IMG/VR virus record: IMGVR_UViG_3300002834_000024
Coordinates: 1-64,000 of that record
Source of the DNA: a virus
Lineage: Duplodnaviria; Heunggongvirae; Uroviricota; Caudoviricetes
DNA length: 64,000 bases
Direction: 5' to 3' (one strand)
Shown: piece after piece, positions 645-64,000 of the stretch
Layout: each line of letters begins with the position of its first letter
Numbering within the stretch: position 1 is the stretch's first letter
Made by a program: the position numbers and the translations under genes
Notes under the pieces: generated by a model
The model's database searches: none
Told to the model about the DNA's origin: nothing
Seen by the model: the letters and a program-made list of their open reading frames with translations, nothing else

Positions 645-3600
645 ATGACATTTGACGAATTACTTGATAAATTAACACCAGAAATAGAACTTTTAATTGA
701 TCAATCAAGAATACAAAACGAAATTCTTGTTGATCTTAATGCAGCCACCACTGAATTATTAGAAAAATATAAAGAAAGTGATGGGTTGATTGAACAAATT
801 ACTCTTTTGAAAGATAAATTAGTTGAAACAACTCAAAGTTTAACTGACTTAAATACCCCAATTACAAGTTTTTCCGATGCTTTAAAACAGGGGAAAACAG
901 ACATGGATGATTCTATGAGTAAATTAACATCCATGACTAAAAGTACAACCCAAAATTTTGGAAAATTTATTGGCGTTGCTGTTGCTGGTACAAATAAATT
1001 CAAAGAGTTAGCAACAGCAGCTGGAAAAGCTGGTACTGCACAAGATGATGCTGCTAAATCACTTAAAAAAGTGGGAGATGCTTCTGATAATTTAAAAGGT
1101 CGTCTTGATAGTAATCCTGGTGGTACAGGTGGTACTGGTAGTGGTAGACCAGGTTCTTCTGGTGCAGCCAAAGGTGGTAAATTACAAAAAATTGGTCAAA
1201 TTGCAATAGATGTTGTTAAAGGCGGATGGGAACAAATGACAAAACTTGAAGAAGCATTTAGACCATTGAATAGACAAATGGGATTGAGTGCTGAAAATCA
1301 AGTTAAGTTTATGGGGGCAATGAATAAAGTTGCCATTGATACAACAAGAAAATTTGGTATAGCAGCAAAAGATCTTGGTGAAATTCAAGGTAAATTATTT
1401 GCTGAAACTGGTAGGATACAAGTAATGTCAGCAAAACAAGCTGAAAAAGTTGCTGGAATTGCCAAAGTAATGGGTAATCAAGCTGGCGCACAATTTGTTG
1501 CAGATATGGATAAAATTGGAGTATCCACAGATAAGGCAGCAAAAAGTTGGAGCGAGATAAGGTCTATTGCTGGTAAAGCTGGCGTTGATATGGTTAAAGC
1601 AACCAGTCTAGTTCAATCAAATATACAAAAAGCACAATCATACGCATTTAAAGATGGTGTTAATTCGTTAGCACAAATGGCAACAAAATCTTTGCAAATG
1701 AGAATGAATATGGAACAAGTATTCAAATTTTCAGAAGCAAACAGAAGTGTTGAGGGGGCTGTTACACAGGCTGCTCAAACACAAGTATTGGGAGGCGCAT
1801 TTTCATCTTTTGCTAATCCATTAGAAAATTTATATAATTCTTTGTATGATCAAGAAGCATCACAAGATAGATTATTAGGTCTTGGGTCGGATGTGATGAC
1901 ATTTGATAAAAAGTCAGGAACAATGAAATATAAATCTGCTGCTGATCAATTAAGAGCTGAAGCATTTGCTAAAAGTTCAGGGTTAGATATTGGTGAACTT
2001 CAAAGTGGTTGGACAAGAGCAGGAATAGGTCAACAAATAGATAAAGAATTGGGGACTCAATTTGGTGTTGGATTAGATAAAGATCAAAGAGATTTGGCAA
2101 AATCACAAGCTAGTTGGAATGAAGATATGAAGGCTTGGACTGTATCTGTTAGAGAAAAGGATAGTGAGGGGAATTATACTTATAAAGATAAAGAATTAGA
2201 TCAATTAACATCACAAGACCTTGCATCAATACAGGCTGACGATAGTCAAAATATAGATGAAATTGCGAGAACAACAATGACCATTAAAGATAAACTTGTT
2301 GCGATTCTTGATGCTGCAAAAACTGCATTTGGTGGGTGGGTTTTTAAAAATCTAGGCCCATTTCTTGCAGATATGGTTGAAAAAATAGGTGGCTTTTTTG
2401 GGGGATTATCAACTGGAATGAAAGCACTTGTTGGGGGTGCTGCTGTTGCTGCTGGACCCATTGGAAGTTTAGCATTAGGCGGTGTAAAAAAACTAGGTAA
2501 AAATGCCTTAGGCGCATTTGGAAAAGTCGCAAAATTAGCAAAAGTTGACAAAGTAGCTGGATTAGGTAGAGGAACAATAATGAAAAATGCTGGTAAAAAT
2601 ATGTTGAAATTAGGTAAAGGTAGTGGTATTGCAGCTGGTCTTATTTCAGCAGGAGTTGAAGGTTTTGATCAATGGCAAGCTGGTAACTTTAAGAAAAGTA
2701 GTGGAAATCAAGGAAAAGCAATTGGTTCAACTGCTGGCGCTGGTGTTGGTGGCGGTCTTGGCGCATGGGGTGGAGCTGCTGCTGGAGCAGCAATTGGTAG
2801 TGTTGTACCTGGCATTGGAACTGCAATTGGAGGCGTTTTAGGTGCTATTGTTGGTGGTCTTGCTGGAAGTAAATTTGGTAAAAACATTGGTAATGCCATT
2901 GGTAAATACTTTGATGAAGGTGGGGGAAAAGCAATTAAAGAAGCATCAAAAAAAGTTTGGGGTGCTGTTTCTTCAACTGCATCAAATGTTTGGGGGGCAA
3001 TGAAAGAAAAGGGTGGTCAAATTGGATCAGCTGTTGGAAAAATATGGGATAATTTAAGTGTTAAAGGTAAACAACTTGGCGGTGGATTTTCAGCATTATT
3101 TAAAGGCGATTTCAAGGGTGCTGCTACCAATTTTACATTATTAACAAAAAATGTAATTGGGGATGTAGTTAATATTAGTAAAAAATTTGGTGAAATTGGA
3201 AAAGAATTTGGTGGATGGATTTCAGATGCTTTTGGAAAAATAACAAGTAAAGAATGGTGGGGTGAAAAGTTGAGTAATATATGGGAAAGTATTACTGGGT
3301 TCTTCGGACCTATTGGAGATTTTTTCAAAGAAAAGTTTGGTGCAATTGGTGATTGGTTCACGGAGAAATTTGGTGCAATTGGTGATTGGTTCACAACTGC
3401 TTTTTCAAATATAACATCAGCTGAATGGTGGGGTGAACGAATTTCAAATATAAAAGATGCTATTATAGGCAAATTTACATCAATTGTTGATTGGGTTAGT
3501 GAAAATTTAAGTCCAAGTGCAATATTTAATAAGGCTAAAAATGCTGTTGTTGGAGTTGCTAACAAGGTAATTGGTAAAGGTAAAGAAATACTCTCTGATG

Positions 3601-5424: not shown

Positions 5425-6618
5425 TTAAGACATCATCAGGAATTGTTTTCTCATATCAATAAGAATATCATTAAAGAAGTCAATATCAACTTGATCTGGT
5501 AATGAACAGGTATTGATATTTTGTTCAATATAAGATTTCTTTTCTTCAGCAATCTTCATTATTTTGTCATAATCCCATTCACCTTTTTTTACGGATAAGA
5601 TGAAATCTCTGTCAATATCAGTTCTATCAATGAGGAAACCTTTACCATTAACAAGTTCTTCACCCATTGTTAAAAGCCGAATACAATGTGAAATGTTTTT
5701 GACATCATAATTTCGTTGGCTTTCAATATTGATTTTAAATCTTTCAGGATTTCTTTTTTTCTTCCAGTCTTGGTAATTTTTATAATCAACACAAAATTTT
5801 GAGTATCCTGATTTGTTATATGTCATATAACAAATTGGTAAAATCTCTTTTTCAACAGAGGATAATCTCACTTCATTACTATCATCACCAACAATACCAC
5901 GATAATTAGTTTCATTGATTGTATTAATAACTATGTTTAATGGTTCTAAATTTAAGAAAGAACATGCCATTCGATAAGAATTATTAATTAATTTTAATAA
6001 AATATATTCTTCTTCATCTGTGTTAATTTCAAAAAACTTTTCATTGTAATGTTTTTTGAAATCATAATATAAACCATAAACATCGTGCATATGTGGAATA
6101 TTTACCAACCCACAGTATTCTTGATATAAACTATTTTGTTTAAGATAATCTTTAATGGGTATTGAACCCTGTTCTTTGAATGTATAACAAAAGTCAAGAA
6201 CATCTTTCTTTTCTTCAATTGGATTAACAATTGCTTTATTTAACCCACGTGCCTTTTGAATTTGAGAATGGGCATATTGGGTTAATATCTTTGCTAATTC
6301 TTTTGTCAAAAATTTATTTCCATTTTCAAAAATAGGGGTTAAAATTTTGTGAGGCTTGGTTAACATTTTATCCTTCGGAACAAAAACACCCTCGATCATA
6401 TTTGGATTTCCTTTAATAAGGAGTTCAACCCATCTACCAAGTTCGTAAAACACAACATCATTACCATCAACATTCATTTGTTCTTGATAATTTTGTCTTA
6501 ATCCAAGAATATCATTGATATTTTGGACAAAAACACCAGATTTATCAAGATCACTATTTTCTGTTGCTAATCCATACAGTTGTGAACCACGAATATATTC
6601 ATAAATTATATTTTGCAT
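5425..6618 (-). CDS. Pol-beta superfamily nucleotidyltransferase (RlaP/PF10127-like predicted NTase)
   Basis: N-terminal motif IRGSQLYGLATENSDLDKSGVFV is the hG[GS]x(9-13)Dh[DE]h nucleotidyltransferase signature. The size (397 aa) and following helical region resemble the RNA-repair-associated NTase family. Family assignment is from memory of the motif style, not a search. Confidence 0.5.
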   Translation of the reverse strand: MQNIIYEYIRGSQLYGLATENSDLDKSGVFVQNINDILGLRQNYQEQMNVDGNDVVFYELGRWVELLIKGNPNMIEGVFVPKDKMLTKPHKILTPIFENGNKFLTKELAKILTQYAHSQIQKARGLNKAIVNPIEEKKDVLDFCYTFKEQGSIPIKDYLKQNSLYQEYCGLVNIPHMHDVYGLYYDFKKHYNEKFFEINTDEEEYILLKLINNSYRMACSFLNLEPLNIVINTINETNYRGIVGDDSNEVRLSSVEKEILPICYMTYNKSGYSKFCVDYKNYQDWKKKRNPERFKINIESQRNYDVKNISHCIRLLTMGEELVNGKGFLIDRTDIDRDFILSVKKGEWDYDKIMKIAEEKKSYIEQNINTCSLPDQVDIDFFNDILIDMRKQFLMMS

Positions 6619-6620
6619 AA

Positions 6621-6881
6621 TTAAACTATTTCACTTACTATTTGTTTAAATAATTCTGGATTATTACGGCAATCAATACGACCACCAATAACATGTTCAT
6701 GTGATGTATATTCAGTTAGAAACATATTGTTAAATGTGCCATATGCACCACACTTACTTGTAAATAAATTATCACCTTTGTTATCATAAACTGGAGATAA
6801 TCTGTAACCATTTTGTTCTAACCATTCAATCATTTCGGTAGTATTCTCAATGATTGCTGCTTGTTTGTAAAGATATTCCAT
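6621..6881 (-). CDS. hypothetical protein
   Basis: 86-aa ORF tightly abutting the upstream gene (3-nt gap). Promoter element 6906-6952 upstream. Confidence 0.45.
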   Translation of the reverse strand: MEYLYKQAAIIENTTEMIEWLEQNGYRLSPVYDNKGDNLFTSKCGAYGTFNNMFLTEYTSHEHVIGGRIDCRNNPELFKQIVSEIV

Positions 6882-6905: not shown

Positions 6906-6952
6906 CAAAAGTATTAAATCTTATATAATATTTAATGTACTGGATGTTAAAA
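6906..6952 (-). promoter_or_regulatory. conserved bipartite minus-strand promoter element (TTTTAACATCCAG-N26-TAcTTTTG)
   Basis: Plus strand shows CAAAAGTA at 6906-6913 and CTGGATGTTAAAA at 6940-6952. Same 26-bp spacing as five other copies. About 27 nt upstream of the ATG of 6621-6881. Confidence 0.6.
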
Positions 6953-7294
6953 TGGGATATTTTTTTCTAATTGTTTTTTAAATTCTTCGATGGTTTCAAT
7001 ACCAAAGTTTTTTCGTTCTTGGTCTGTTAAATCTCTTATATCCCCACAAACTTTACATTCCATTTTTGAAAAACATCTTGGTTGAGTAGATGTTAGATAA
7101 TATTCATGTAAACCATCTTCATTTAAACAGTCTGCTTTTTCAACATTATAATCAAAACTTATTTGTGTTGTATATACAAACATTTTTTCACATCCACAAC
7201 ATTGTTGTGAATATATTTCATCTTCTTCATAACCATAACCATCATCATGGTTTATGTATTGTTCTTTTCCGCAATAGGGGCAATTTATACTCAT
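6947..7294 (-). CDS. Cys-rich zinc-ribbon protein
   Basis: 115-aa ORF with CPYCG...CCGCE...CKVCG cysteine pairs. Stop codon lies inside the promoter-element 13-mer. Confidence 0.5.
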   Translation of the reverse strand: MSINCPYCGKEQYINHDDGYGYEEDEIYSQQCCGCEKMFVYTTQISFDYNVEKADCLNEDGLHEYYLTSTQPRCFSKMECKVCGDIRDLTDQERKNFGIETIEEFKKQLEKNIPF

Positions 7295-7626
7295 TTTCTA
7301 TATGTTATATCAAAGTTATATAATTTACATATCTGGTACAATATGTTATCTTCATCTGGATATTTTTCAAATTCATTGTAATTCATAGTTAATTCTTCAC
7401 CAATTTCAATATCTTTTATTGCAAAATCCCCAATTGGATCAACACCAATGTTTGGATTATATGAATGATTGATATATCTACCGCCATCCATTGGCATAAT
7501 ATATAAACCTGAAAATATATCTTTATATGCGTGTTCAACTATGTCAAGTTGAATTTGTTCTGGTGCATATAATATTGCTTCTTCATCTAATATTTGGTCC
7601 AATCCATGAATAAATCTTGCAACCAT
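7291..7626 (-). CDS. SET-domain protein (putative lysine methyltransferase); N-terminus ambiguous
   Basis: Contains YINHSYNPN (the SET NHSCxPN motif with C to Y) and ELTMNYN (the ELxxxY post-SET region). The GxG motif (NAYGLGVYADEFIPNGT) is encoded in frame immediately upstream of the first ATG (7627-7677), but a TAA at 7678-7680 and no canonical start codon precede it. Confidence 0.5.
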   Translation of the reverse strand: MVARFIHGLDQILDEEAILYAPEQIQLDIVEHAYKDIFSGLYIMPMDGGRYINHSYNPNIGVDPIGDFAIKDIEIGEELTMNYNEFEKYPDEDNILYQICKLYNFDITYRK

Positions 7627-7707
7627 AGTCCCATTTGGTATAAATTCATCAGCATATACACCAAGACCATAAGCATTTTATTTTACCTTATGTTTAATTA
7701 ATAACAT

Positions 7708-8229
7708 TTAGTTGTCTCCTTCTCTAACTGTAATTATTTTTGTATCATCATTAATAACATCAATAAACTCATCAAGAATTTTGAGTTGTTCGGGTAATTC
7801 TACATTACTATATATTAATTTTTCCATATCTATGTCAAGTTTACCCCTATCTTCGTCACAACTTAAACGATAATTACCATCATTTTTTATGATAGTATAT
7901 CCCAATATTTCTTTTACATAATCTGTAAAATATTTTTTATGGACTTCATCTATAGCCCAAGATTCTTCATTTAGATACAAAAATAATAATGCAGCCTTTT
8001 CATGTCTTGTAAAAGCGTTCCAAACAGTTCCATTACTATAATCATTATATTCGCCTCCTGTATAAGGATCGCTTGTATATCCTTCACCTTTATGGTAAAA
8101 CTTATCTAAATCCAATACATTGTTATTATATATCTCTTTATCAGATACAGATTTACTTTTAACTGTTAATGTATGGACACTACTTGAATTGGTTTCAAAA
8201 ACACATTCTCTAATTTTTATCATAATCAA
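7708..8229 (-). CDS. hypothetical protein
   Basis: 173-aa ORF with no recognisable motif. Confidence 0.45.
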   Translation of the reverse strand: MIMIKIRECVFETNSSSVHTLTVKSKSVSDKEIYNNNVLDLDKFYHKGEGYTSDPYTGGEYNDYSNGTVWNAFTRHEKAALLFLYLNEESWAIDEVHKKYFTDYVKEILGYTIIKNDGNYRLSCDEDRGKLDIDMEKLIYSNVELPEQLKILDEFIDVINDDTKIITVREGDN

Positions 8230-8514: not shown

Positions 8515-10362
8515 TTATTTTTTTTGCTCATCAATAATAACAGTATCAATTGTTAGTAATTTCCGAACAAGTGTATTCCAAACATATTCTGAATAAGTAT
8601 CATTAAATAATTGAAAATAAATTAAACAATCTTTTTGTTGACTTATGCGGTGGATTCGATCAAAGAACTGACTATTATTACCTGGAACCCAATCATAATT
8701 ATTAAAGATGCAAACATTGGCAGATGTTAATGTTAATCCAACACCAGCTGCTTGTATATTTCCAATGAAAATTTTTCTATCATTATCCCTTGTAAATAAC
8801 TCAACAGATTTATCTTTTTCTTTTTGGGACATTTTACCATTGTAAATAACACACTTATCACCAAAATGTTTTTGTAGTTCATACAATTCACTATCATAAC
8901 AACATGCAATAATAATTTTACATTCTGGATCATTTTCCCAACACTCATTACACAATTCAATTGTTCTTGAAATCATAGTATTTGATAACCATTGACGTAA
9001 GAGTGTTCCCTCAACTAATTGTCTGTTTCTATCATCCAATGTATTAACATCAACATCATCTAATTCAGCCTTTTTATCTTGGTATTCATTCCAAACATTA
9101 TTATAATCTAATCTTTCTTTTGGTGTTAAATCATAATACAACTCTTTTATAATCTTATCAGGTAAATCTTTTAATTCAGATTTCAAACGTCTTAAATAAA
9201 TGTTTTTAATTCGTTCCTGTAATTCTTCGATATGAGTATCATCTTTTGGTATAAGAACTTCACGACCTGTTTTAAGTTTCATTCTTTTAGCACCACAATA
9301 TCGTATCATAAAATAATCATAATCTGATACAATTTCTGAATCTATAAGTGATAAAATATTATATAAGTTTTTTGTGTTATTTGAAATTGGTGTGCCAGTC
9401 AGCATATAGATATTATCTATTCCAGATTTTTGAAAAAAGTCATTGATTGCTTTATATCTATTTGATGTTCTATTAGATAATTTATGTGCTTCATCCATTA
9501 TAACTAAATCAAATTCAGCTAATATCAAGGGATTTTTACTATTTAATTCAGCAATTAATTGTTTATTATTAGAACGAACCTTTTTAATTTTACCAGAAAA
9601 TTCATCAACAACTTCCCTATATGCAACTTCATGGGCATGTTTATCAAATATATCATAATTTATTATGGTATATTTTTTAGACATATCCCATTTATCTCTA
9701 TCAGTTCCTTGTATAATAGAAACAGAATCTTCCCCAAAAAATGATATTTCTTTTTTCCATGTTGTTTTAAGAGATGCAGGACAAATGATTAATATTTTTT
9801 GAAATAAACCACAATAACTTGATGTTAATGAACTTACACTTTTCCCCAACCCCATGTCATCTGCAAGAATACACTTTTTAGAAGCAAGTAAAAATCGTGC
9901 TGCATCACCTTGATGTTCTTTTAATTTTCTTCCACTTTTTTCCAATAAACGATTAATATTATCTATATCTAATGGGTAATTTTGCCAATTAATATCAATA
10001 AGTGGTGTTAATAATGCTTTTTTTGGAATAAACAAACTAATCCAATCTATTTGATTTTTTGAATGTTTACACCAAACATGATATATAGAAGATGTTTCAC
10101 CAGCAAGAGTAAACACATGTAATTTTTCTGGGATAAATTGAAGCTGAAATTGTTTCTGTAATTTTGTTCCATAAAAATCCGCAATTCTAACAATTTTATC
10201 AACAAGTATTGGTTCATTTCTCATGTGATTCATGAGAACATATTCACAGTCCAAATCCTTTAATTTATTTTTTCTTTGTAACCTTAATATTTCCGAATTT
10301 CGACCATTATATGTTTTTAGAATTTCTTCTGTTTCCTTGAACTTCTTTTGTGTTATCTTCAT
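8515..10362 (-). CDS. SNF2-family (SF2) helicase/ATPase
   Basis: Walker A LADDMGLGKSVSS, DEAH box VIMDEAHKLSN, and C-terminal helicase motifs IQAAGVGLTLTSANVCIF and QFFDRIHRISQ are typical of SNF2/RAD54-like proteins. Confidence 0.8.
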   Translation of the reverse strand: MKITQKKFKETEEILKTYNGRNSEILRLQRKNKLKDLDCEYVLMNHMRNEPILVDKIVRIADFYGTKLQKQFQLQFIPEKLHVFTLAGETSSIYHVWCKHSKNQIDWISLFIPKKALLTPLIDINWQNYPLDIDNINRLLEKSGRKLKEHQGDAARFLLASKKCILADDMGLGKSVSSLTSSYCGLFQKILIICPASLKTTWKKEISFFGEDSVSIIQGTDRDKWDMSKKYTIINYDIFDKHAHEVAYREVVDEFSGKIKKVRSNNKQLIAELNSKNPLILAEFDLVIMDEAHKLSNRTSNRYKAINDFFQKSGIDNIYMLTGTPISNNTKNLYNILSLIDSEIVSDYDYFMIRYCGAKRMKLKTGREVLIPKDDTHIEELQERIKNIYLRRLKSELKDLPDKIIKELYYDLTPKERLDYNNVWNEYQDKKAELDDVDVNTLDDRNRQLVEGTLLRQWLSNTMISRTIELCNECWENDPECKIIIACCYDSELYELQKHFGDKCVIYNGKMSQKEKDKSVELFTRDNDRKIFIGNIQAAGVGLTLTSANVCIFNNYDWVPGNNSQFFDRIHRISQQKDCLIYFQLFNDTYSEYVWNTLVRKLLTIDTVIIDEQKK

Positions 10363-10365
10363 ACT

Positions 10366-11076
10366 TTATCCCCCATAATATATCATTTGATTTTTTTTCC
10401 AATTAAAGGCTTTATAGATTCTAACTAATTCAAATATCGCATATTCATATTTCCAACTCATTGTAATTTCAGGGTTAGTTTCATCTAAATCATATGGTTT
10501 ATAATTCCATTCATTTATCATTTCATGAAAATGGTTAATCATACAACCTAATGCGTTAGATTCATTTCTTGTTATTTTTGAAAAATCAAAAGAATACATT
10601 CTATCAAAATCAGAGTTGTAATCAGTATAAGAAATCGTTTTACTTTTTACAAATTCACTATCAACATCTTTTATGAATGGTTGAAATATAGTATTATAAT
10701 ACTTTTTAACTTTTTGTGTATAGTGATCAATAATATACAAAAGAAAATCCTTTGTTACAACATACAATTCAATATCATCACCCACATATGCTTTTTGCAT
10801 ATCTTTATTTTTAAAAAAAGGTTTGATTGATTTTTTCGGAGGATCAAATTCAGTATATTTTCCAAATTCATGTAAACGTGTACATAGATCACTAATATCG
10901 AAATCACCAACACATTCAACATTAAATTCTTCTATAAATTCATCAATAGTTAAATCATATATCCATTTGTATTGTGCTTTTGAAATATATGATATTCCTG
11001 TTCTGTATCCCATATAAATATAATTTTGATTACATTCAAATATAATCATTTTAATTGAATACTTCAAAAAATACAT
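10366..11076 (-). CDS. hypothetical protein
   Basis: 236-aa ORF, 3 nt downstream of the SNF2 gene (operonic). Confidence 0.45.
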   Translation of the reverse strand: MYFLKYSIKMIIFECNQNYIYMGYRTGISYISKAQYKWIYDLTIDEFIEEFNVECVGDFDISDLCTRLHEFGKYTEFDPPKKSIKPFFKNKDMQKAYVGDDIELYVVTKDFLLYIIDHYTQKVKKYYNTIFQPFIKDVDSEFVKSKTISYTDYNSDFDRMYSFDFSKITRNESNALGCMINHFHEMINEWNYKPYDLDETNPEITMSWKYEYAIFELVRIYKAFNWKKNQMIYYGG

Positions 11077-13527: not shown

Positions 13528-14019
13528 ATGTCAGACTTGCTTATAAAAATGCCATTAGTATACGAACCATTAAGGAAAAACCGTTTTCTATTCAGATTTC
13601 CTAGTGATTTGGGGGTACAAGAATGGTGGGTAGCGACTGGTTCAAGACCTGTCATTAATCAAACCGAAACAGAAATTCCATTTTTAAATACATCAACATG
13701 GGTTGTTGGTAGATATATTTGGGATGCAACACAATTAGTTATGAGGGACCCAATTGGTCCATCAGCATCACAAGCTATGATGGAATGGGTACGTTTACAT
13801 TCGGAATCTGTTACTGGTCGTCAAGGTTACGCTGCTGGTTACAAACGAAACGTTGAGTTAGAAATGCTTGATCCAACAGGTGTTGTTGTGTCAAAATGGA
13901 TTCTTGTTAACACAATGCTTTCTCAACAAGCATCATTTGGAGATTTGGATTATAACAGTTCAGACCTTGCAACAATTACAGTAAATTTACGTTTTGATTA
14001 TGCTGTACTTGCATATTAA
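13528..14019 (+). CDS. tail tube protein (T4 gp19-like)
   Basis: 163 aa. N-terminal KNRFLFRFPSDLG resembles the gp19 NLFQVEI start and C-terminal ITVNLRFDYAVL resembles the gp19 FEVTLALDYW end. Size matches gp19 (163 aa). Confidence 0.55.
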   Translation: MSDLLIKMPLVYEPLRKNRFLFRFPSDLGVQEWWVATGSRPVINQTETEIPFLNTSTWVVGRYIWDATQLVMRDPIGPSASQAMMEWVRLHSESVTGRQGYAAGYKRNVELEMLDPTGVVVSKWILVNTMLSQQASFGDLDYNSSDLATITVNLRFDYAVLAY

Positions 14020-14058
14020 TTCATCAAACTATTTATATACATAAAATACTTAAAAGAT

Positions 14059-14526
14059 ATGAAACTTACAGAGCAACAATTAAGAGAATATGTTAGAAAC
14101 GCTGTTGTAGAAAGTTTGAATGAGGCAGCACTTGATGAAGGATGGTTGGATAACATAAGAGCAGCTGGTGATATTGCTGGTGCTGGTTTAAGAAATGTGG
14201 GGAATAGAATAAAACAGGGTGTTCAAGATTTCCAACAACAAAGTAAAGCAAGGGGTGATATTTATCAACAACAAAGAGATGTTAAAAATTTCAATAAAAA
14301 ACTTACAAATGCACAAGGTAAGGCAACTGAAATAGTTGATAATAAAATTATGCCAATTTTGAATGGTATACCAGGTTATAGACAGTCAATACCACATATT
14401 GGTAAAATAAGAAATGCTTTAGTTAATTTAATTATGAAAGGATTTCCAGCTCAACAAGTAGCACCACAACAGCAACCATTAGGTGGTAATCAACAACCTC
14501 AACAACAATATGGGCAAACAGCTTAA
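14059..14526 (+). CDS. hypothetical protein (Gln/Pro-rich C-terminus)
   Basis: 155-aa ORF. TATTTAT motif upstream at 14030-14036. Confidence 0.4.
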   Translation: MKLTEQQLREYVRNAVVESLNEAALDEGWLDNIRAAGDIAGAGLRNVGNRIKQGVQDFQQQSKARGDIYQQQRDVKNFNKKLTNAQGKATEIVDNKIMPILNGIPGYRQSIPHIGKIRNALVNLIMKGFPAQQVAPQQQPLGGNQQPQQQYGQTA

Positions 14527-14557: not shown

Positions 14558-14590
14558 AACATGTAGTTTCAATATTACATGTTTTTTTTT
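14558..14590. terminator. bidirectional rho-independent terminator
   Basis: AACATGTA gtttcaatat TACATGTT (8-bp stem) is followed by T9 on the plus strand and preceded by A7, so it is T-rich on both strands. Lies between convergent genes 14059-14526 (+) and 14589-15203 (-). Confidence 0.6.
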
Positions 14591-15203
14591 ATTCTTTAAT
14601 AATCTTATTTAAAAGAGGAATTAATGTTTTATCATCCCTTAACAATAAAATAATATCTTTTGGGATAAAATCTGTATTATAAAAAATTTGATTATTTGGG
14701 TTTTTATAAAACAGACTTAATAATTTATCTCCGGTGATTCCAATATATTCTGTATCATCTATATTAATCCCATAAACTATGTTTTGATGATATATATAGA
14801 TAAATGAATTATTTGCTACATAGATATAAGTTTTTTCATTTGATTTAATAATGTTCAATAAATTGGACAAATCTCTATATTTTGTTTGAAATATATTACA
14901 AAATTGATATTCATATTGAGATTTAAGGTTATCAAAAATATGAATATAAAATTTAATAATATCTTTTTCAAATTCATCTCTTTTTTCGGTTCTTGAAAAT
15001 GTCCAATGGGTTAGATTAGATAAGTTTTTATTCAATATTGATAATGCCGAAAAGGATGGGAATAAACTTTTCGTAAATTCCCACCCGATGATCAATGTTG
15101 GTCTTTTTGGTATTCCTTTATAAGAATTGAAATATTCTATAAAATCAACCTTTTTTAAAAACTTCTCATTCGGCTTTTCGATTACTATATTTGCAATTTT
15201 CAC
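14589..15203 (-). CDS. hypothetical protein
   Basis: 204-aa ORF, 3 nt downstream of the DUF932 gene. Confidence 0.45.
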   Translation of the reverse strand: MKIANIVIEKPNEKFLKKVDFIEYFNSYKGIPKRPTLIIGWEFTKSLFPSFSALSILNKNLSNLTHWTFSRTEKRDEFEKDIIKFYIHIFDNLKSQYEYQFCNIFQTKYRDLSNLLNIIKSNEKTYIYVANNSFIYIYHQNIVYGINIDDTEYIGITGDKLLSLFYKNPNNQIFYNTDFIPKDIILLLRDDKTLIPLLNKIIKE

Positions 15204-15206
15204 AAT

Positions 15207-16310
15207 TTACGCTGCAAGTGCATAGATACTATCGTGTGTCTTTTGCATTTTTTTGTACACATCCCCATCCATAATGGCGTTAAACTTATATTCATCACCT
15301 TTGTTGTAACTTCTGTGGTTTTGGAAGTATGTACTCATTCCATTGAGTACCCAAAGTGCGCTTCCCCTCCATCTTTCCTGACCAATCCCATTATCCAATG
15401 TATTCAATACATTTTCAATTGTGTTTCTTGATCTGGTAGAGATGTCAATGTGATTAAAATTGTAGTTTTCAAGTTGTAATTCTCTTACTTGGGATTGTTC
15501 AAGGAATACATCAGCAACAATTTTCTTAACGATATTGTCATCAACCTTTACATCAGCAAATCTGTTTAAAGTATCCTGTAAATTCTGAACATAAATTTTA
15601 TGCCCCCTTAAAATACTCAAAGCCATTTCTAGGTTTTCCTTTTGTTTCAGATTTACTTTTGAGTGAACGTTTTTGGTGTGTTTGAAGTACACCCGATTTT
15701 TACCCTCATGTAATGCCATGTTGAGAGTGTTATTACAAACTACACGTGTGGTACAGAATTGAGCGATTACTGCGCCAGTTCCATCATGGCTGTTAGTGAA
15801 AAGAATGTAATCTTCAATCACATCATCACTGTCTTTGATTTTGAATGGTTCGTTAAACCTTGCGGTTACAAACATTCTTTCGCCACCCCCAAGTACACCA
15901 GCTGTTTCAATAAAGGGGGCATCAAACTGTCCCGACACTCCGCTTAGAATGTCTTGTACAAACTCAAAGCCTTGCAAGTTTTGTACAACTTCATAACCAC
16001 TTCCAACAACACCTAAAATGTTGTCTAAATCACGTCTAACTGTACATTGATGACTTTTGATTATATCCTTTTGATTGAAAATTCTATCAAGAGGTAAACC
16101 CATTTTGATTTTTTCCAAATCTTCAGATGTGATGCGTATAAGCGCATCTTTTTCTACTTGATAATCAGCTCTACAAGCTGTTATCGCTTCATGAATGGTA
16201 ATTCTGGGATCATCAAATATAATTCCCAGTCCATGCCAAGGCTTATTTATTCTACCACCTGCTGTTACAAAACTACCTTTGTCGTCTCTCATTTCAATTT
16301 CGTGTGCCAT
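15207..16310 (-). CDS. DUF932-family (phage/plasmid-like, TIGR03299-type) protein
   Basis: N-terminus MAHEIEMRDDKGSFVTAGGRINKPWHGLG matches the characteristic MAH..E....F......pWHGLG start of DUF932 proteins. 367 aa. Confidence 0.55.
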   Translation of the reverse strand: MAHEIEMRDDKGSFVTAGGRINKPWHGLGIIFDDPRITIHEAITACRADYQVEKDALIRITSEDLEKIKMGLPLDRIFNQKDIIKSHQCTVRRDLDNILGVVGSGYEVVQNLQGFEFVQDILSGVSGQFDAPFIETAGVLGGGERMFVTARFNEPFKIKDSDDVIEDYILFTNSHDGTGAVIAQFCTTRVVCNNTLNMALHEGKNRVYFKHTKNVHSKVNLKQKENLEMALSILRGHKIYVQNLQDTLNRFADVKVDDNIVKKIVADVFLEQSQVRELQLENYNFNHIDISTRSRNTIENVLNTLDNGIGQERWRGSALWVLNGMSTYFQNHRSYNKGDEYKFNAIMDGDVYKKMQKTHDSIYALAA

Positions 16311-16355
16311 ATCTCTAAATTTTAAAAATTAATAATTTTGTTTAATATTATACCA

Positions 16356-16402
16356 CAAAGATACGAATAAAATTACATAAGATTTAATTCTGGATGTTAA
16401 AA
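16356..16402 (-). promoter_or_regulatory. conserved bipartite minus-strand promoter element (TTTTAACATCCAG-N26-TAtcTTTG), with overlapping hairpin
   Basis: Plus strand shows CAAAGATA at 16356-16363 and CTGGATGTTAAAA at 16390-16402. The 13-mer is part of an inverted repeat TCTGGAT gttaaaaaaa ATCCAGA. About 45 nt upstream of the DUF932 start. Confidence 0.6.
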
Positions 16403-16464
16403 AAAATCCAGAAAAACTTTTTTTGTGAGTTTTCTGGATTTTCAGTTTATGAAAAACTTGAATG

Positions 16465-17136
16465 TTAGAAAGGCAAGTTATCAGCATTACTTCCACCCGA
16501 ATAATACTGTTGATTATTTGGCTGCTGTCCTTGTTGTGGAGTAGCCTGATATTGCGGTTGTCCTTGTGGTTGTGGCTGATACTGTGGTTGCTGGTTTCCA
16601 CCCCTTTGTTGTGTCCCACCTTGTGGTGGGACTTGTTGGTATTGTTGAGGAGGCGGAGCTTGTTGATACTGCGGTTGTCCTTGTGGTGGAGCCTGATACT
16701 GCGGTTGAGGTGCTTGTTGCCATGTCTGTTGTTGATTCGGATTATAACCTTGTGCTTGTTCGTTGTAAGTATTTTGCTTTCCATTTCCATTAGGATTGCT
16801 ACCAGTTAAGGTTAACTCCCCACCATCTGCTGAATTAACAACAACTTCGGCGACTCTTACTTTTTCCCCATTATCTCTATCCCATTCTCTATATGTAAGT
16901 TCCCCCTTAATGGCAATTTGAGAACCTTTACTAACATATTCCTTTGCGACTTTTACAACAGAACCTCTGATAACAATCTGATGCCAAGATGTTTTTTCGG
17001 GAATTGTGCGACCATCTTGTGTTGTAAATCCTCTCTTTTTGGTGGCAAGACTAAATGTAACAATTTCGCCACCATTATCAAATGTTGTAACTTTTGGGTC
17101 TTGCCCAACATGACCAATTAAAATAACTGTATTCAT
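16465..17136 (-). CDS. ssb: single-stranded DNA-binding protein (bacterial OB-fold type)
   Basis: N-terminal OB fold MNTVILIGHVGQDPKV...ETSWHQIVIRG...IKGELTYREWDRDNGEKVRVAEVVVN. Low-complexity Q/P/G-rich linker and an acidic C-terminal tip ending DNLPF (like DDDIPF). Overlapping ORFs in this region are frame artefacts of the repetitive linker. Confidence 0.85.
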   Translation of the reverse strand: MNTVILIGHVGQDPKVTTFDNGGEIVTFSLATKKRGFTTQDGRTIPEKTSWHQIVIRGSVVKVAKEYVSKGSQIAIKGELTYREWDRDNGEKVRVAEVVVNSADGGELTLTGSNPNGNGKQNTYNEQAQGYNPNQQQTWQQAPQPQYQAPPQGQPQYQQAPPPQQYQQVPPQGGTQQRGGNQQPQYQPQPQGQPQYQATPQQGQQPNNQQYYSGGSNADNLPF

Positions 17137-31004: not shown

Positions 31005-31775
31005 ATGGGAAAATTAAGTGAAATATTAAATAGTAGTATTCTAAAAGGGATTTTTAGTTTTGTTAAAAGTTATTGGAAAGAAATATTGGTAATTATATTA
31101 CTTCTAATATGTTTCTTATCAATTCGGAGTTGTAATGAAAATAAAAGAGAAATTGAAAGACAAGTACATAATGTTGCAGTATCATTAGATAGTGTTCGAT
31201 ATTACAAAGATAAGAATGGTGAGATGTATGGGGAAATGTTATCCTACATTGCTACCCAAAAAGAATTGGAAAAATTAAATTCTGAATTATTTGAAAATGT
31301 TAATGCCTTGAAGAAACAAATATTGGCAGGTGTCAATACTCTTATTGTTATACGTGATACAATTGAAGTTAGAGATACATTATATATAAACAATGAAGTT
31401 CCATTACAAAGTTTCTTAATTCCAATTAAAGATGACATTCTGTCAGCCAATCTTGGTTTAACATATAATAAAAATAATAATTTACCATTTTTAGAAATAA
31501 AACGTTTTGATTATACATTAGAGTTACCTGTTGAAGTATATTTTACAAAAGATTATTCTGTAATTTTAAAAACTGGTAAAGATAATGTAAGATTCAGTAA
31601 TGTTGCCTCATTTATTGATCCAGTTTTTTATAGACCACAAAAACCAAAACGATATGGTATAGGATTTAGTGGTGGAATTGGAGTTTCACCATATAATCTT
31701 GTTAATGGAAAATGGGGCGTATATGCTTTTCCATATGTTGGATTATCTTTTAATTATAACTTGATAAGTTTTTAA
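31005..31775 (+). CDS. hypothetical membrane-anchored protein
   Basis: 256 aa. N-terminal TM helix EILVIILLLICFLSI. TATTTAT motif upstream at 30976-30982. Confidence 0.4.
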   Translation: MGKLSEILNSSILKGIFSFVKSYWKEILVIILLLICFLSIRSCNENKREIERQVHNVAVSLDSVRYYKDKNGEMYGEMLSYIATQKELEKLNSELFENVNALKKQILAGVNTLIVIRDTIEVRDTLYINNEVPLQSFLIPIKDDILSANLGLTYNKNNNLPFLEIKRFDYTLELPVEVYFTKDYSVILKTGKDNVRFSNVASFIDPVFYRPQKPKRYGIGFSGGIGVSPYNLVNGKWGVYAFPYVGLSFNYNLISF

Positions 31776-31993
31776 TTAAAAAAATTAGGTGTTTCTTTTA
31801 ATATTCTTTCTACAATTGGTTTAACAATTCTTTTAATAGATTCATTGGCAAAATATCCTCTTAATCCAGCTTCTGCATCGGATTTGGAATCATATTCCGC
31901 ATCCCATAATTTACCAGTTTTACCAGAGCGAACTCTCCATTTATTTCCAACTTTTTCTATACAAGAACCATTACATTTATTTTCAGTTGTCAT
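31772..31993 (-). CDS. hypothetical small protein
   Basis: 73-aa ORF convergent with 31005-31775. Confidence 0.3.
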   Translation of the reverse strand: MTTENKCNGSCIEKVGNKWRVRSGKTGKLWDAEYDSKSDAEAGLRGYFANESIKRIVKPIVERILKETPNFFN

Positions 31994-32124
31994 GACAAAT
32001 AATAATTTATTATAAATACAATGTAATATAATTCCAATCAGGACAAAAATTTAATAAAAAATATGGGAAATATTTTCATATAACCCATATTTTCACATCA
32101 TTAAAAATTGAAATCAGGACACAA

Positions 32125-52990: not shown

Positions 52991-55900
52991 TTGGATTTAC
53001 AAAATATCATAGAACAAACCATTAAACAGGCTTTAAGAAGTGCTGAAAAGACTGTTGATACCAACCCATCTGAAAAAGAGATAAAAGCTGGAAATTACAA
53101 GAAAGGACATATCAATATTCTTGGATTTGATATTACCATTGAAAATCCAAAAGGTTCTTATCGAAGTGGAAAAGATCGTGATGGTAAAGAATGGAAAACT
53201 AAAATGTATAACACTTATGGTTATTTTAAAAACAGTGTTGGATATGATGGGGACCATGTTGATGTATTTTTAGGAAACAATTTAGAATCAAACAAAATAT
53301 TTGGAATAGACCAATTTATAAAAGGGAAGTTTGATGAAACTAAATTTATGATGGGATTTGATAGTGAAGAAGAAGCCAAAAAAGCATATTTATCCAATTA
53401 TGATAAAGATTGGAAAGGTTTCAAGTATATACGTGAAACTGATGTTGAAACATTTAAAAAATGGTTATATAGAGGTAAAAAACAAAGATTACCATTCCAT
53501 GATTATGTTACATTATCTGAAAGTATATTGAATGAGTTGTCAATAGGTAGGGTATTATTATCCCATTTCACAGATGCTTTAAATAACCCAAAACTGTTTA
53601 ATGAACCAAATTGGATACAAAAACATAAAGAAATTCAAGATAATCATGGTGATAATTTTAATATTACTAAAATTAATAGTGAGATATTAAATAAATTAAT
53701 ACCACAATATACATCTAAAAATCCAGAATTAATGAGTAATATGGGTATTGAAAATGCTATTAACTTATTAACTAAAAATAAATATCGTAGTGATCAAGCA
53801 GTAAATTTAACAAAAGAATTATTATCCTTACATAATGAACTGAAAGAAAATCCAGAATTAATTAATAATGGGAATTTTATGGATAGGTACAATCATTTAA
53901 AAAAATTATATGGTAATAGAGTTAACCTTGATAAACCATATAAAAAAAGTGATCGTAGAGACACAAATGGTAATTTAATAAATAATAAAGAAGATATACC
54001 TTTACAAAAAAAACCTATTGAAACAAAATCTAATATAAATAAAAAATCTTTGAAACAAGAGCCTCTTGTAATTGGTTGGGAAATGATTGAATCGAAAGAA
54101 ACAAATATTATAAGGATTAATAATCGTGGTTCATGGTTAGAAGATTTTTGTGAAAAAATTAAAAAATATACAGATAAATTTGAAATACTATATGACTGTG
54201 CTTATGATAAACATAATAAGACTGGACAAAAATATGGTATTGAAAGTAAAGAATATCCTGGTATTGGGCAATTTGATTATGTAATGATTTATTCTGATGT
54301 TTCGGTTGAAGATAAAGAAAAATATAAATATTTAAGAAATGATGGCGAATATGAAATCACATGTCGAGGAATAAAAACCAAAGAGATACTCAAGGATATA
54401 TTAAAAAGATTAGGTCAAAATGGGAATAGTGGTCATACATTTGCTTTCAAAATTAAATCTTTAAATGGAAACAAAGAAGATACATTACAATATGATGGCG
54501 ATGGACATGATTTTGTTGAATTATTAGATGATAAAAAGAATGAAACAATTAATGAATCCACAGAAAATATTGAACAAGAAGAAAGCAAAAAAATGATTAA
54601 AAATTATTTTGGTATTCAACTGATGGATGATTGGGACAAACTACGACTTGGCGGTGGTGGATCTGGGGTTGCATATTTAACATTGGATGGTTATGTATTA
54701 AAGCTAACAACATCACCAAATGAATTTCGGACAGCACAACGAATGAAAGGAAAAACATTTAAACATTTAGTTAATGTATATAATGTATTGGATTTTGAAC
54801 AAGAAAATATTCCGCCTTATGGTTATTGGAAAAAAGGTAAATGGGTGAGATGTTTTTATGGTATTCTTGAGGAATATGTTGATTCTAATTTACAGTATAA
54901 CCAATTTATGCACAAATATATTATGGATGTATTATTCAATGATAATATCATGAATGGAATAGTTGGTACAAAAGCATCTCATAATAACCGTTATATTATG
55001 TTAGAGTATCTTATATCAGAAGAAAATGTTAATACTATTATTTCACGAATTGAAAGTTATGATAAATTTAATGAAGATCAAAAAAATGTTTATATAGATG
55101 CAACACAACAGTTACATGAAGCCGTTCTGGAAATGGAAAGTGTTCCAGGTCTTGAATTAGATAGTTTTTTGGGGGGTTCAAATTTTGGCTTTGATGATAA
55201 TGGTGTTATAAAAGCATTTGATTTGGAGGGTATTATGACTGAAAACACATTATATGAACGTGATATGCGTTTCTATAATGACAACAATGAAGAAATGGAT
55301 ATTACAGATTATCTGGATACTTCATCTGAAATGAAAATAGATACTGCAATCAATATTATCAATACCAAATTAAGACAACCACAAGCAAGACATCAAGTAT
55401 TAAAATATATTTTGAAAAATATTAATAAATCGAACATGTCTGGACAAATGAAAATGGATTTAAGAGATCAAGTCATGGAAGATTTATCTAACAAAGTTAC
55501 AAAACTTATTATACCAACCATGTTTAAAGATGGTGAACAACAAAGAGTTGATGTTGATACACATTTAGAAGACTTAAATGAGGAAAATAAAAGATTATTA
55601 TCGCACAAATTTCAAATACCAACAGAATTATTTCAAACACTATCTAATAGATTTAACAAAATAAAGGGTAATCAAAATTTTACAAGTAGAGATGGGTATA
55701 AAAGACTTCAAAATCTTGTTAATTCAAATGGTGAAATAGGTTACTTATGGATGAATAGATTAAAAAATTTCTGGAAATATTTCGATGGAGATGCTGATAA
55801 TGATATTGAAGCGTGGTTAAATGGGGGGGGCGAAATGCGAGATTGGGTTAATAAAGCATTGGATGAAGCAGAAAAATCACTTGAAATGTCTAAAATGACT

Positions 55901-56137
55901 TCAAAAGATGCTGGTATTAAAAATGCCTTTATCCAACATCACTATAAGAACAATAATCAAATAAATGTCAATTCTGATGCTGTATCATTTGGAAAAGTAA
56001 AAAATAATATGGGGGAAAGTTTGGTGTATTGGCATGTTGATGGTGATGCTTCCCCTGACAGTGATAGTTATGAAATTGGTCCAGAAGAACCAATTACAAT
56101 TAAAAATGTTGTTGAACAAATAATTAAAAATATATAA
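52991..56137 (+). CDS. large multidomain (polyvalent-like) protein with a kinase-like domain
   Basis: 1048 aa starting at TTG (TAA in frame 2 codons upstream; no ATG until about residue 70). The N-terminal block YGYFKNSVGYDGDHVDVFLG...KGKFDETKFMMGFDSEEEAKKAY resembles inorganic pyrophosphatase signature regions (YGYI...DGDPVDVLV; KGKWVKVEGWENAEAAK). The middle domain is shared with 38785-40572. Kinase-like region LGGGGSGVAYLTLDGYVLKLTT...LDSFLGGSNFGFDDNGVIKAFDLEG. Followed by a cell-wall amidase gene. Confidence 0.55.
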   Translation: MDLQNIIEQTIKQALRSAEKTVDTNPSEKEIKAGNYKKGHINILGFDITIENPKGSYRSGKDRDGKEWKTKMYNTYGYFKNSVGYDGDHVDVFLGNNLESNKIFGIDQFIKGKFDETKFMMGFDSEEEAKKAYLSNYDKDWKGFKYIRETDVETFKKWLYRGKKQRLPFHDYVTLSESILNELSIGRVLLSHFTDALNNPKLFNEPNWIQKHKEIQDNHGDNFNITKINSEILNKLIPQYTSKNPELMSNMGIENAINLLTKNKYRSDQAVNLTKELLSLHNELKENPELINNGNFMDRYNHLKKLYGNRVNLDKPYKKSDRRDTNGNLINNKEDIPLQKKPIETKSNINKKSLKQEPLVIGWEMIESKETNIIRINNRGSWLEDFCEKIKKYTDKFEILYDCAYDKHNKTGQKYGIESKEYPGIGQFDYVMIYSDVSVEDKEKYKYLRNDGEYEITCRGIKTKEILKDILKRLGQNGNSGHTFAFKIKSLNGNKEDTLQYDGDGHDFVELLDDKKNETINESTENIEQEESKKMIKNYFGIQLMDDWDKLRLGGGGSGVAYLTLDGYVLKLTTSPNEFRTAQRMKGKTFKHLVNVYNVLDFEQENIPPYGYWKKGKWVRCFYGILEEYVDSNLQYNQFMHKYIMDVLFNDNIMNGIVGTKASHNNRYIMLEYLISEENVNTIISRIESYDKFNEDQKNVYIDATQQLHEAVLEMESVPGLELDSFLGGSNFGFDDNGVIKAFDLEGIMTENTLYERDMRFYNDNNEEMDITDYLDTSSEMKIDTAINIINTKLRQPQARHQVLKYILKNINKSNMSGQMKMDLRDQVMEDLSNKVTKLIIPTMFKDGEQQRVDVDTHLEDLNEENKRLLSHKFQIPTELFQTLSNRFNKIKGNQNFTSRDGYKRLQNLVNSNGEIGYLWMNRLKNFWKYFDGDADNDIEAWLNGGGEMRDWVNKALDEAEKSLEMSKMTSKDAGIKNAFIQHHYKNNNQINVNSDAVSFGKVKNNMGESLVYWHVDGDASPDSDSYEIGPEEPITIKNVVEQIIKNI

Positions 56138-62917: not shown

Positions 62918-62940
62918 ATTAAAAATAATTAAAAAACTAT

Positions 62941-64000
62941 AAAGAAAATGAAAGAGTTCTTAAAATCAGGCGTTGTTGGTAACATTGAATATGACCAATT
63001 ACGTGAAAACAGAAAGAGAATATCTGAAACTTGGGAAAAACTTGGCTTTACTCAAGGTCTTGTTGGTGTACAAAAAGAAAACATTGCAACTCTTTTTGAA
63101 AACACAGCAAAACAATTAATCAACGAAGCAACCGATTCTTCTAATTCAGGATCGTTTGAAACTGTTGTATTCCCAATTGTTCGTAGAGTATTCTCGAAAT
63201 TGCTTGCTAATGATATTGTATCTGTACAAGCGTTGAATTTACCAATCGGTAAATTGTTCTATATTAAACCTGTAACAAGTGAAAGACAATGGGAAGGTTT
63301 AGATGCTAATGGTAATATCCAAGATGGTTCGTCAGCGAAACATACTGGAATGATGGGCTACGAAAGAGATGACCGTAACTGGCAAAACACAGGTAAAGGT
63401 AATCAGGGTGCTTTTGCAAACCGTTACTACTTGCCCGATGATGTAATTGTTACAAACGCTTCTCAAAAGCCTGTTCCTACATTTGATGCTGTTGATCCTG
63501 TAACTGGTCAACCATTACCAACTGCTGTACGTCATACTCCAGTCGTCACTCAATTTATGAAAACATCTCTTTACGATTTGTTCTACAACGATTTCTTGTA
63601 TGATAATAGTAAAGGTAGAATTTGGATTAAAGTTGCACAAGCTGCTACCCCAGTTATTTTAACTGCACAACGTGATTTCCAACCACCTACGACACCGACT
63701 TATCCGCCTTCAAGAAATGATGGTACTATTCGTAACGTTATATTAGAAGTAACTGGTTTCAATAACTATAATGCTGGTAAATTGATTGGTCCTGATGGAA
63801 ATGAAATGGATAGCGAAGCATTTTTAGCTTCATTGAGAGTTCTTGCTGCAAATGCAATTCCCGATGCTACAAATAAAGGTTATACAACATTCTTACAATT
63901 TGAAAACGTTCCTTATCGTGTTATGACACAAAAATATGGAAAAGCTATCGTTGAAAGAGAAAATATATGTGATGCCGAAGGTAAAATTTACTTGGAACTT
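62941..64000 (+). CDS. major capsid protein, T4 gp23-like (partial, continues beyond the window)
   Basis: No stop codon to the end of the window. The segment VVFPIVRRVFSKLLANDIVSVQALNLPIGKLFYIKP matches the conserved gp23 block (PAVMGMVRRAIPNLIAFDICGVQPMNSPTGQVFALR). Confidence 0.65.

Follow-up and report, generated by a model that had tools for sequence, protein, structure and literature searches.

A premature ochre codon in a small SET-domain gene of an uncultured jumbo phage, probably a recent null allele

Small SET-domain proteins of prokaryotes and phages (PF00856) are about 120–150 aa long and begin with an N-terminus of the form MLLVKTxxxxSxIHGxGxF. Their GxG motif (motif I) contacts AdoMet together with motif III (RFINHxCxPN) and motif IV (ELxFDY, with the catalytic Tyr) (PMC3585878). 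A SET ORF was annotated previously in a phage, as ORF62 of phage Ps15 (PMC9025141). The vSET protein (A612L of Paramecium bursaria chlorella virus 1; PDB 3KMA, 1N3J) is a minimal viral SET enzyme of about 120 aa, which methylates histone H3K27. In bacteria and phages, translation is well known to restart behind early nonsense codons, as in the restart polypeptides of lacI and T4 rIIB. Stop codons are also reassigned in some phages (code 15, TAG to Gln; code 4, TGA to Trp), among them Lak, crAss-like, and other jumbo phages. Recoded phage clades were described solely for TAG and TGA (bioRxiv 10.1101/2021.08.26.457843), and among 10,754 surveyed jumbo phage genomes there were cases of TAG and of TGA recoding but none of TAA recoding (PMC13037316).

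The locus discussed here resembles each of these systems in part. It lies in a stretch of 64,000 nucleotides, hereafter the window, of an uncultured phage. Its SET gene has the length, the N-terminal start, and motifs I, III, and IV of the small prokaryotic and phage SET proteins, but in the window copy alone a stop codon is present at codon 10, where the relatives have Glu or another sense residue. Like vSET it consists of a SET domain only. Its identity with vSET is about 22%, vSET comes from a eukaryotic virus and targets histones, and the window copy is interrupted. As in the restart alleles of lacI and T4 rIIB, a stop within the first codons is followed by an in-frame AUG from which an N-terminally truncated protein could begin; in the window locus, competing out-of-frame AUGs intervene. 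Like the recoded phages, the window phage is large and AT-rich, uses TAG hardly at all as a terminator, and has an in-frame stop inside a conserved domain. In contrast to them, the codon involved is TAA, its main terminator; the case is single in 64 kb, and the window holds no suppressor tRNA.

The SET gene comprises 138 codons on the minus strand (7707–7291), and translation of this frame showed one internal TAA (7680–7678) and a terminal TGA (7293–7291). The frame reads MLLIKHKVK-TAA-NAYGLGVYADEF..., and translation of the minus strand from 7722 to 7288 gave ...EGDN-stop, MLLIKHKVK-stop, NAYGLGVYADEFIPNGT, and MVARF...ITYRK-stop. The ATG at 7707–7705, the probable ancestral start, stands directly 3′ of the TAA (7710–7708) of an upstream minus-strand gene (7708–8229), which encodes a 173-aa protein of unknown function with no match in PHROGs or Pfam. 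Behind the TAA at codon 10, 17 codons (7677–7627, NAYGLGVYADEFIPNGT) carry SET motif I (GxG, G14-L-G16, 7668–7660). Though encoded in the DNA, these codons fall between the stop and the next in-frame start. That start is the ATG of Met28 (7626–7624), the first in-frame ATG 3′ of the TAA, from which the gene caller began a 111-aa ORF (P0001). Further along the minus strand are motif III, RYINHSYNPN (7479–7450), with the invariant N80-H81-S82, and motif IV, EELTMNY (7398–7378), with the conserved E104, E105, and Y110. The next gene downstream (6947–7294, minus strand) encodes a Cys-rich protein of 115 aa, and its ATG (7294–7292) overlaps the SET terminator as ATGA.

The original prediction described a SET gene whose GxG motif lies upstream of its first ATG. 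What it had read directly from the letters held: the ORF from ATG 7626 to TGA 7291 (111 aa, minus strand) encodes YINHSYNPN and ELTMNYN, the GxG stretch is in frame behind the TAA, no ATG, GTG, or TTG occurs among the 17 codons between the TAA and ATG 7626, and an ATG one nucleotide out of frame is present near the GxG, at 7676–7674. The placement of the GxG upstream of the first ATG did not hold, as ATG 7707 lies in frame nine codons 5′ of the TAA. Judged by homology, the TAA is an internal premature stop at codon 10 and not the 5′ boundary of the gene, and it is this codon, between ATG 7707 and the GxG motif, that breaks the frame leading from the start codon into the SET domain.

The nine codons 5′ of the TAA (MLLIKHKVK) are homologous to the N-termini of relatives. 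An initiator Met occupied the column of ATG 7707 in 55 of 60 aligned relatives, with the consensus MLLVKTxxxxSxIHGxGLF, and nine metagenomic relatives aligned from query residue 1, with N-termini MLLVKTYLDRSPIHGLGVYADEFI or MMLVRTYVSPSIIDGLGVYADEFIP. An exhaustive HMMER search with the post-stop sequence as query gave 1264 relatives at E ≤ 0.001, and nearly all of these alignments began at residue 12–16 of the relative. A natural start at the equivalent of Met28 was seen in 3 of the top 150 relatives, all of them apparent truncated calls. An AAGGAG sequence located 7 nt upstream of ATG 7707 was considered as Shine–Dalgarno support and dropped; it carries no weight because Shine–Dalgarno-like motifs precede only 1 of 47 long ORFs, below the 6% background. 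Shine–Dalgarno-led initiation is not used by this phage, and what identifies ATG 7707 as the likely start is homology alone. The near-absence of such motifs, observed for the 47 long ATG ORFs of the whole window, suggests a host with Shine–Dalgarno-independent initiation, such as Bacteroidota.

With the stop read as X, the full-length protein matched the whole Pfam SET profile (PF00856, positions 1–105 of 105) with 45.2 bits (cut-off 22.4), whereas the Met28 product covered only positions 62–105, with 33 bits. In the family alignment both glycines of motif I (G14, G16) were invariant, as were N80, H81, S82, N86, G103, E104, and E105; Y110 was nearly so. RYINHSYNPN and EELTMNY agree with the definitions of motifs III and IV. 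An AF2 model of residues 11–138 showed a confident SET fold (pLDDT 93.6, pTM 0.83). All 50 matches listed by Foldseek against the PDB were SET domains, the first 42 at E ≤ 0.001, and included SUV420H1, ASH1L, MLL4, vSET, and Set7. Superposed on vSET, the model gave a TM score of 0.63 (normalised to vSET) and an rmsd of 3.3 Å over 102 columns, together with a weak sequence match. Sequence, motifs, and predicted fold all assign the protein to the SET-domain family PF00856, as a predicted lysine methyltransferase. Its N-terminus and length place it in the large group of 120–150-aa single-domain prokaryotic and phage SET proteins that begin with MLLVKT....

Sequence searches of PHROGs and the PDB returned no close annotated relative, and the protein matched no PHROG family. 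Among 50,697 phage records a relative was present in one, the uncultured 636-kb huge phage LR756504.1. This unannotated record contains a distant SET homolog of 34.6% identity at positions 605179–605493 (3001–3315 of the extracted locus L013). The earlier remark that SET proteins are uncommon in phages was thus borne out, with the annotated Ps15 ORF as a precedent.

The closest ortholog, P0003 (140 aa, 53% identity), was found on contig L011 (ENA ERZ27257342 k141_2089640). Its N-terminus reads MLLIKYKLKENQYGIGVYADEFIPKGT, against MLLIKHKVK-stop-NAYGLGVYADEFIPNGT in the window, and the start of its gene, ATGTTATTAAT, is identical to the window in the first 11 bases. At the DNA level, ATG TTA TTA ATA AAA TAT AAA TTA AAA GAA AAC... 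in L011 stands against ATG TTA TTA ATT AAA CAT AAG GTA AAA TAA AAT... in the window. The alignment to a related SET gene that the original prediction had proposed as a check was gapless from the ATG through the whole domain, and a GAA codon (Glu) stands opposite the TAA, so that a single G-to-T substitution at 7680 separates the two. A second intact relative, P0004 (JGI 3300042636 Ga0466703_109989; 149 aa, 41% identity), also has Glu at the codon-10 position. P0003 and P0004 share with the window protein a spacing before the GxG that is shorter by one residue and a C-terminal ...DNIL..C....D..YRK tail. The best-conserved part of the protein is the stretch from the TAA to Met28, where 13 of 17 residues are identical to P0003.

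The gene order of L011 is also that of the window. The SET gene is followed by an 86-aa gene (52% identity to 6621–6881) and then by a nucleotidyltransferase gene (82% identity to 5425–6618). Because L011 is syntenic with the window, P0003 is a true ortholog of the window SET gene. The 115-aa gene at 6947–7294, which follows SET in the window, is missing between the SET and 86-aa genes of L011; comparison of the two loci points to an insertion in the window or a deletion in L011. P0004 lies on a 25.6-kb phage-like contig with a ClpB-like AAA protein, a Dam-type methylase, and a ribonucleotide reductase, a repertoire that resembles that of the window. At least three related large-phage contigs have a conserved, syntenic gene for a small SET methyltransferase. 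The gene is intact in both related contigs examined, which implies that it is normally useful to this phage group.

Some further features of the neighbouring genes were observed. The 115-aa protein is zinc-ribbon-like (CPYCG...CCGCE...CKVCG); it matched phrog_6504 (unknown function) weakly and nothing in Pfam. The gene at 5425–6618 (minus strand) encodes a 397-aa nucleotidyltransferase of the RlaP / RNA-repair-pathway Pol-beta family (PF10127, phrog_388), and its 82% identity to the partial L011 gene is far above that of the SET (53%) and 86-aa (52%) genes.

The most probable explanation of the locus is a genuine nonsense allele, a null allele of an accessory SET gene that arose very recently and is now a nascent pseudogene. 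One G-to-T change at 7680 would have turned codon 10 from GAA (Glu) into TAA in an otherwise full-length, single-domain SET gene of an AT-rich jumbo phage. Ribosomes starting at ATG 7707 would then make a peptide of nine residues and terminate at the TAA. Apart from this codon, the gene is intact: it shows no further stop and no frameshift, and all of the family-invariant residues are kept (G14, G16, N80, H81, S82, N86, G103, E104, and E105). The mutation would be recent because everything else is intact. A gene that is pristine save for its stop implies that the change is very recent, not real, or bypassed. High conservation between the TAA and Met28 would be expected if the mutation is very recent, and equally if translation continues. 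We infer that the TAA is present in the phage and is no error of the consensus, that it goes unsuppressed, and that the truncated product is inactive. Of the three options offered in the original prediction, a truncated inactive SET protein came closest; the cause that it gave has to be replaced, as the gene carries a nonsense codon after a normal ATG and does not lack a start. An early nonsense codon in an accessory gene is an ordinary phenomenon.

Of the other explanations, we consider it unlikely that the TAA is a substitution error of the consensus or sequencing, or a minority variant captured in the assembly, with GAA (Glu) in the dominant genotype and a normal 138-aa SET enzyme as its product. 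The stop is one base away from the sense codon of the ortholog, the remaining gene is intact and highly conserved, and the site lies in an A-rich stretch, GTAAAATAAAATGC, all of which would suit such an error. Nor did the databases provide an independent copy of the locus: exact look-ups of P0001 and of the 115-aa and 397-aa neighbours, stop-masked pattern scans of IMG/VR and the JGI metagenomes, megablast against the 50,697 phage records, and scans of viral contigs for peptide patterns taken from the window protein and from P0003 found none. Against an error, the gapless alignment requires a substitution and not a homopolymer indel, and the 64-kb window shows dense long ORFs, no other split genes, and none of the signs of a noisy assembly. 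Furthermore, the 111-aa product was listed from JGI, ENA, and Logan on two contigs, although those records may share the same reads, and an exact look-up among about 15 billion proteins with E, K, Q, Y, L, or S at codon 10 found no intact 138-aa allele. As a gene caller can predict the 111-aa product only when the stop is present, these records lend weak support to a real allele. Next to no probability was given to a homopolymer indel, programmed frameshifting, a non-canonical start codon, or use of the out-of-frame ATG 7676. The A-rich run and this ATG do adjoin the stop, and a sequencing indel or non-canonical initiation and frameshifting had been proposed on such grounds. However, the frame does not change across the TAA and the ortholog alignment has no gaps, so a frameshift or indel was rejected. 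Homology to the family N-termini extends over the nine codons 5′ of the stop, which makes an unusual start unnecessary, and ATG 7676 opens an unrelated 29-aa frame. A hop of tRNA-Lys from the AAA at 7683–7681 onto the downstream AAA triplets was also rejected, as by inspection it would land out of frame. Of the forms of recoding, only read-through of the stop could rescue the gene.

Such a rescue, in which an ochre suppressor tRNA of phage or host or leaky termination allows the full-length SET protein to be made, perhaps at one stage of infection, was regarded as very unlikely. In its favour, the region 3′ of the stop is perfectly preserved, the window is 64 kb of a 347-kb genome and a suppressor tRNA could be encoded in the other 283 kb, and jumbo phages are often rich in tRNAs, suppressors included, with gating by TAG or TGA stops already proposed (bioRxiv 10.1101/2021.08.26.457843, PMC13037316). 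Several results oppose it. TAA is the dominant terminator of this phage (56 of 76 long ORFs, 52 of 64 chosen genes), so that efficient suppression would extend most of its proteins. UAA is the least leaky stop codon in bacteria, which counts against suppression of a TAA. No other gene with an in-frame TAA was found in the 64 kb, and neither the window nor the loci of the relatives yielded a tRNA. The picture is also not that of programmed read-through: the stop is not conserved, with Glu in the two closest relatives and other sense residues elsewhere, no stable RNA structure was found at the stop (folding z = −1.3 against shuffled sequence), and the short product would have only nine residues. 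The absence of TAA recoding from the surveyed jumbo phages points the same way. The more specific proposal that codon 10 works as a gate, with an ochre-suppressing tRNA present at some stage of infection and the SET methyltransferase made only then, seems more improbable still. If true, it would be the first TAA-based translational gating in a phage that otherwise terminates mainly with TAA. Also highly improbable, though not quite to the degree of the gate, is a 111-aa product that arises by reinitiation at Met28 and serves a separate function, for instance in substrate binding or as a dominant negative, without methyltransferase activity. An in-frame ATG does lie 17 codons past the stop, lacI and T4 rIIB set a precedent for restart after early nonsense codons, and the downstream gene with its ATGA overlap would gain from a flow of ribosomes through the ORF. 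However, seven out-of-frame starts (five ATG, one TTG, and one GTG) lie between the TAA and ATG 7626, and all of them open one dead-end frame of 29 aa that ends at 7587. ATG 7626 is not a favoured restart site because this frame runs past it. Restart at Met28 would give a 111-aa fragment without residues 1–27, and the fragment should be catalytically dead, because the AdoMet-binding GxG and the first β-strands of a compact single-domain fold are missing. The locus is one mutation away from an ortholog-like gene and shows no sign of adaptation, and the truncated calls among the top 150 relatives give a start at Met28 no natural counterpart. A read-through product would read HKVK-x-NAYGLGVYADEFIPNGTMVAR across codon 10 and would include the stretch YGLGVYADEFIPNGT, which a product of restart at Met28 would lack.

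The recent null allele, as the preferred reading, has consequences for annotation. The 111-aa ‘SET protein’ P0001 that the gene caller started at Met28 is an artefact of the internal stop. The locus should be entered as a 138-codon SET gene with a premature TAA (pseudogene or null allele), neither as a new truncated variant nor as an example of unusual initiation. Few sequenced phages carry SET enzymes, and it is the intact orthologs P0003 and P0004, not the window copy, that are worth biochemical testing.

The phage uses the standard genetic code. TAG terminates 1 of 76 long ORFs, and among the 64 chosen genes one ends in TAG, compared with 52 in TAA and 11 in TGA; a TAG inside a gene was found nowhere in the window. 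An alternative code was rejected on the ORF statistics under TAA, TAG, or TGA read-through; the coverage under code 11 is already 93%, and no second split gene was found in the 64 kb. Four same-frame pairs were considered as split genes (13528–14526, 31005–32015, 8515–11076, and 14589–16790) and rejected, since their linkers looked non-coding or their starts were separate. The scarcity of TAG is in keeping with the low GC content and is similar to that in relatives of TAG-recoded phages that use the standard code (bioRxiv 10.1101/2021.08.26.457843).

The 111-aa product is on record in a contig of 347,076 bp, of which the window is 64 kb, and this size makes the phage an uncultured jumbo phage. 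Among the genes of the window are those for a tape-measure protein, a ribonucleotide reductase, helicases, an ATP-dependent protease, and virion proteins, and the GC content is 26–35%. Under code 11, stop-to-stop ORFs of 100 codons or more account for 93% of the window, seven intact ORFs of 760–1136 aa are present, and three coding gaps exceed 150 nt. Within these 64 kb, no gene other than SET was found to be split by an in-frame stop, and no Rfam family was matched. The largest coding gap is at 62918–63331, where 414 nt contain no ORF of at least 50 aa and gave no Rfam match at the gathering thresholds.

Two other parts of the window showed features of interest. The gene of a 615-aa SNF2-family helicase (8515–10362, minus strand; SNF2-rel_dom and Helicase_C) belongs to the minus-strand block of SET and lies two genes upstream of it. 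A 236-aa ORF (10366–11076, minus strand) precedes the helicase gene in frame, with only a TAA and one codon between them, and the two were judged to be separate genes. At 52991–56137 on the plus strand, a protein of 1048 aa is encoded whose N-terminal ~170 residues match a domain common to many very large phage proteins. This domain is variously annotated as DarB-like antirestriction, virion structural, minor head, or endolysin.
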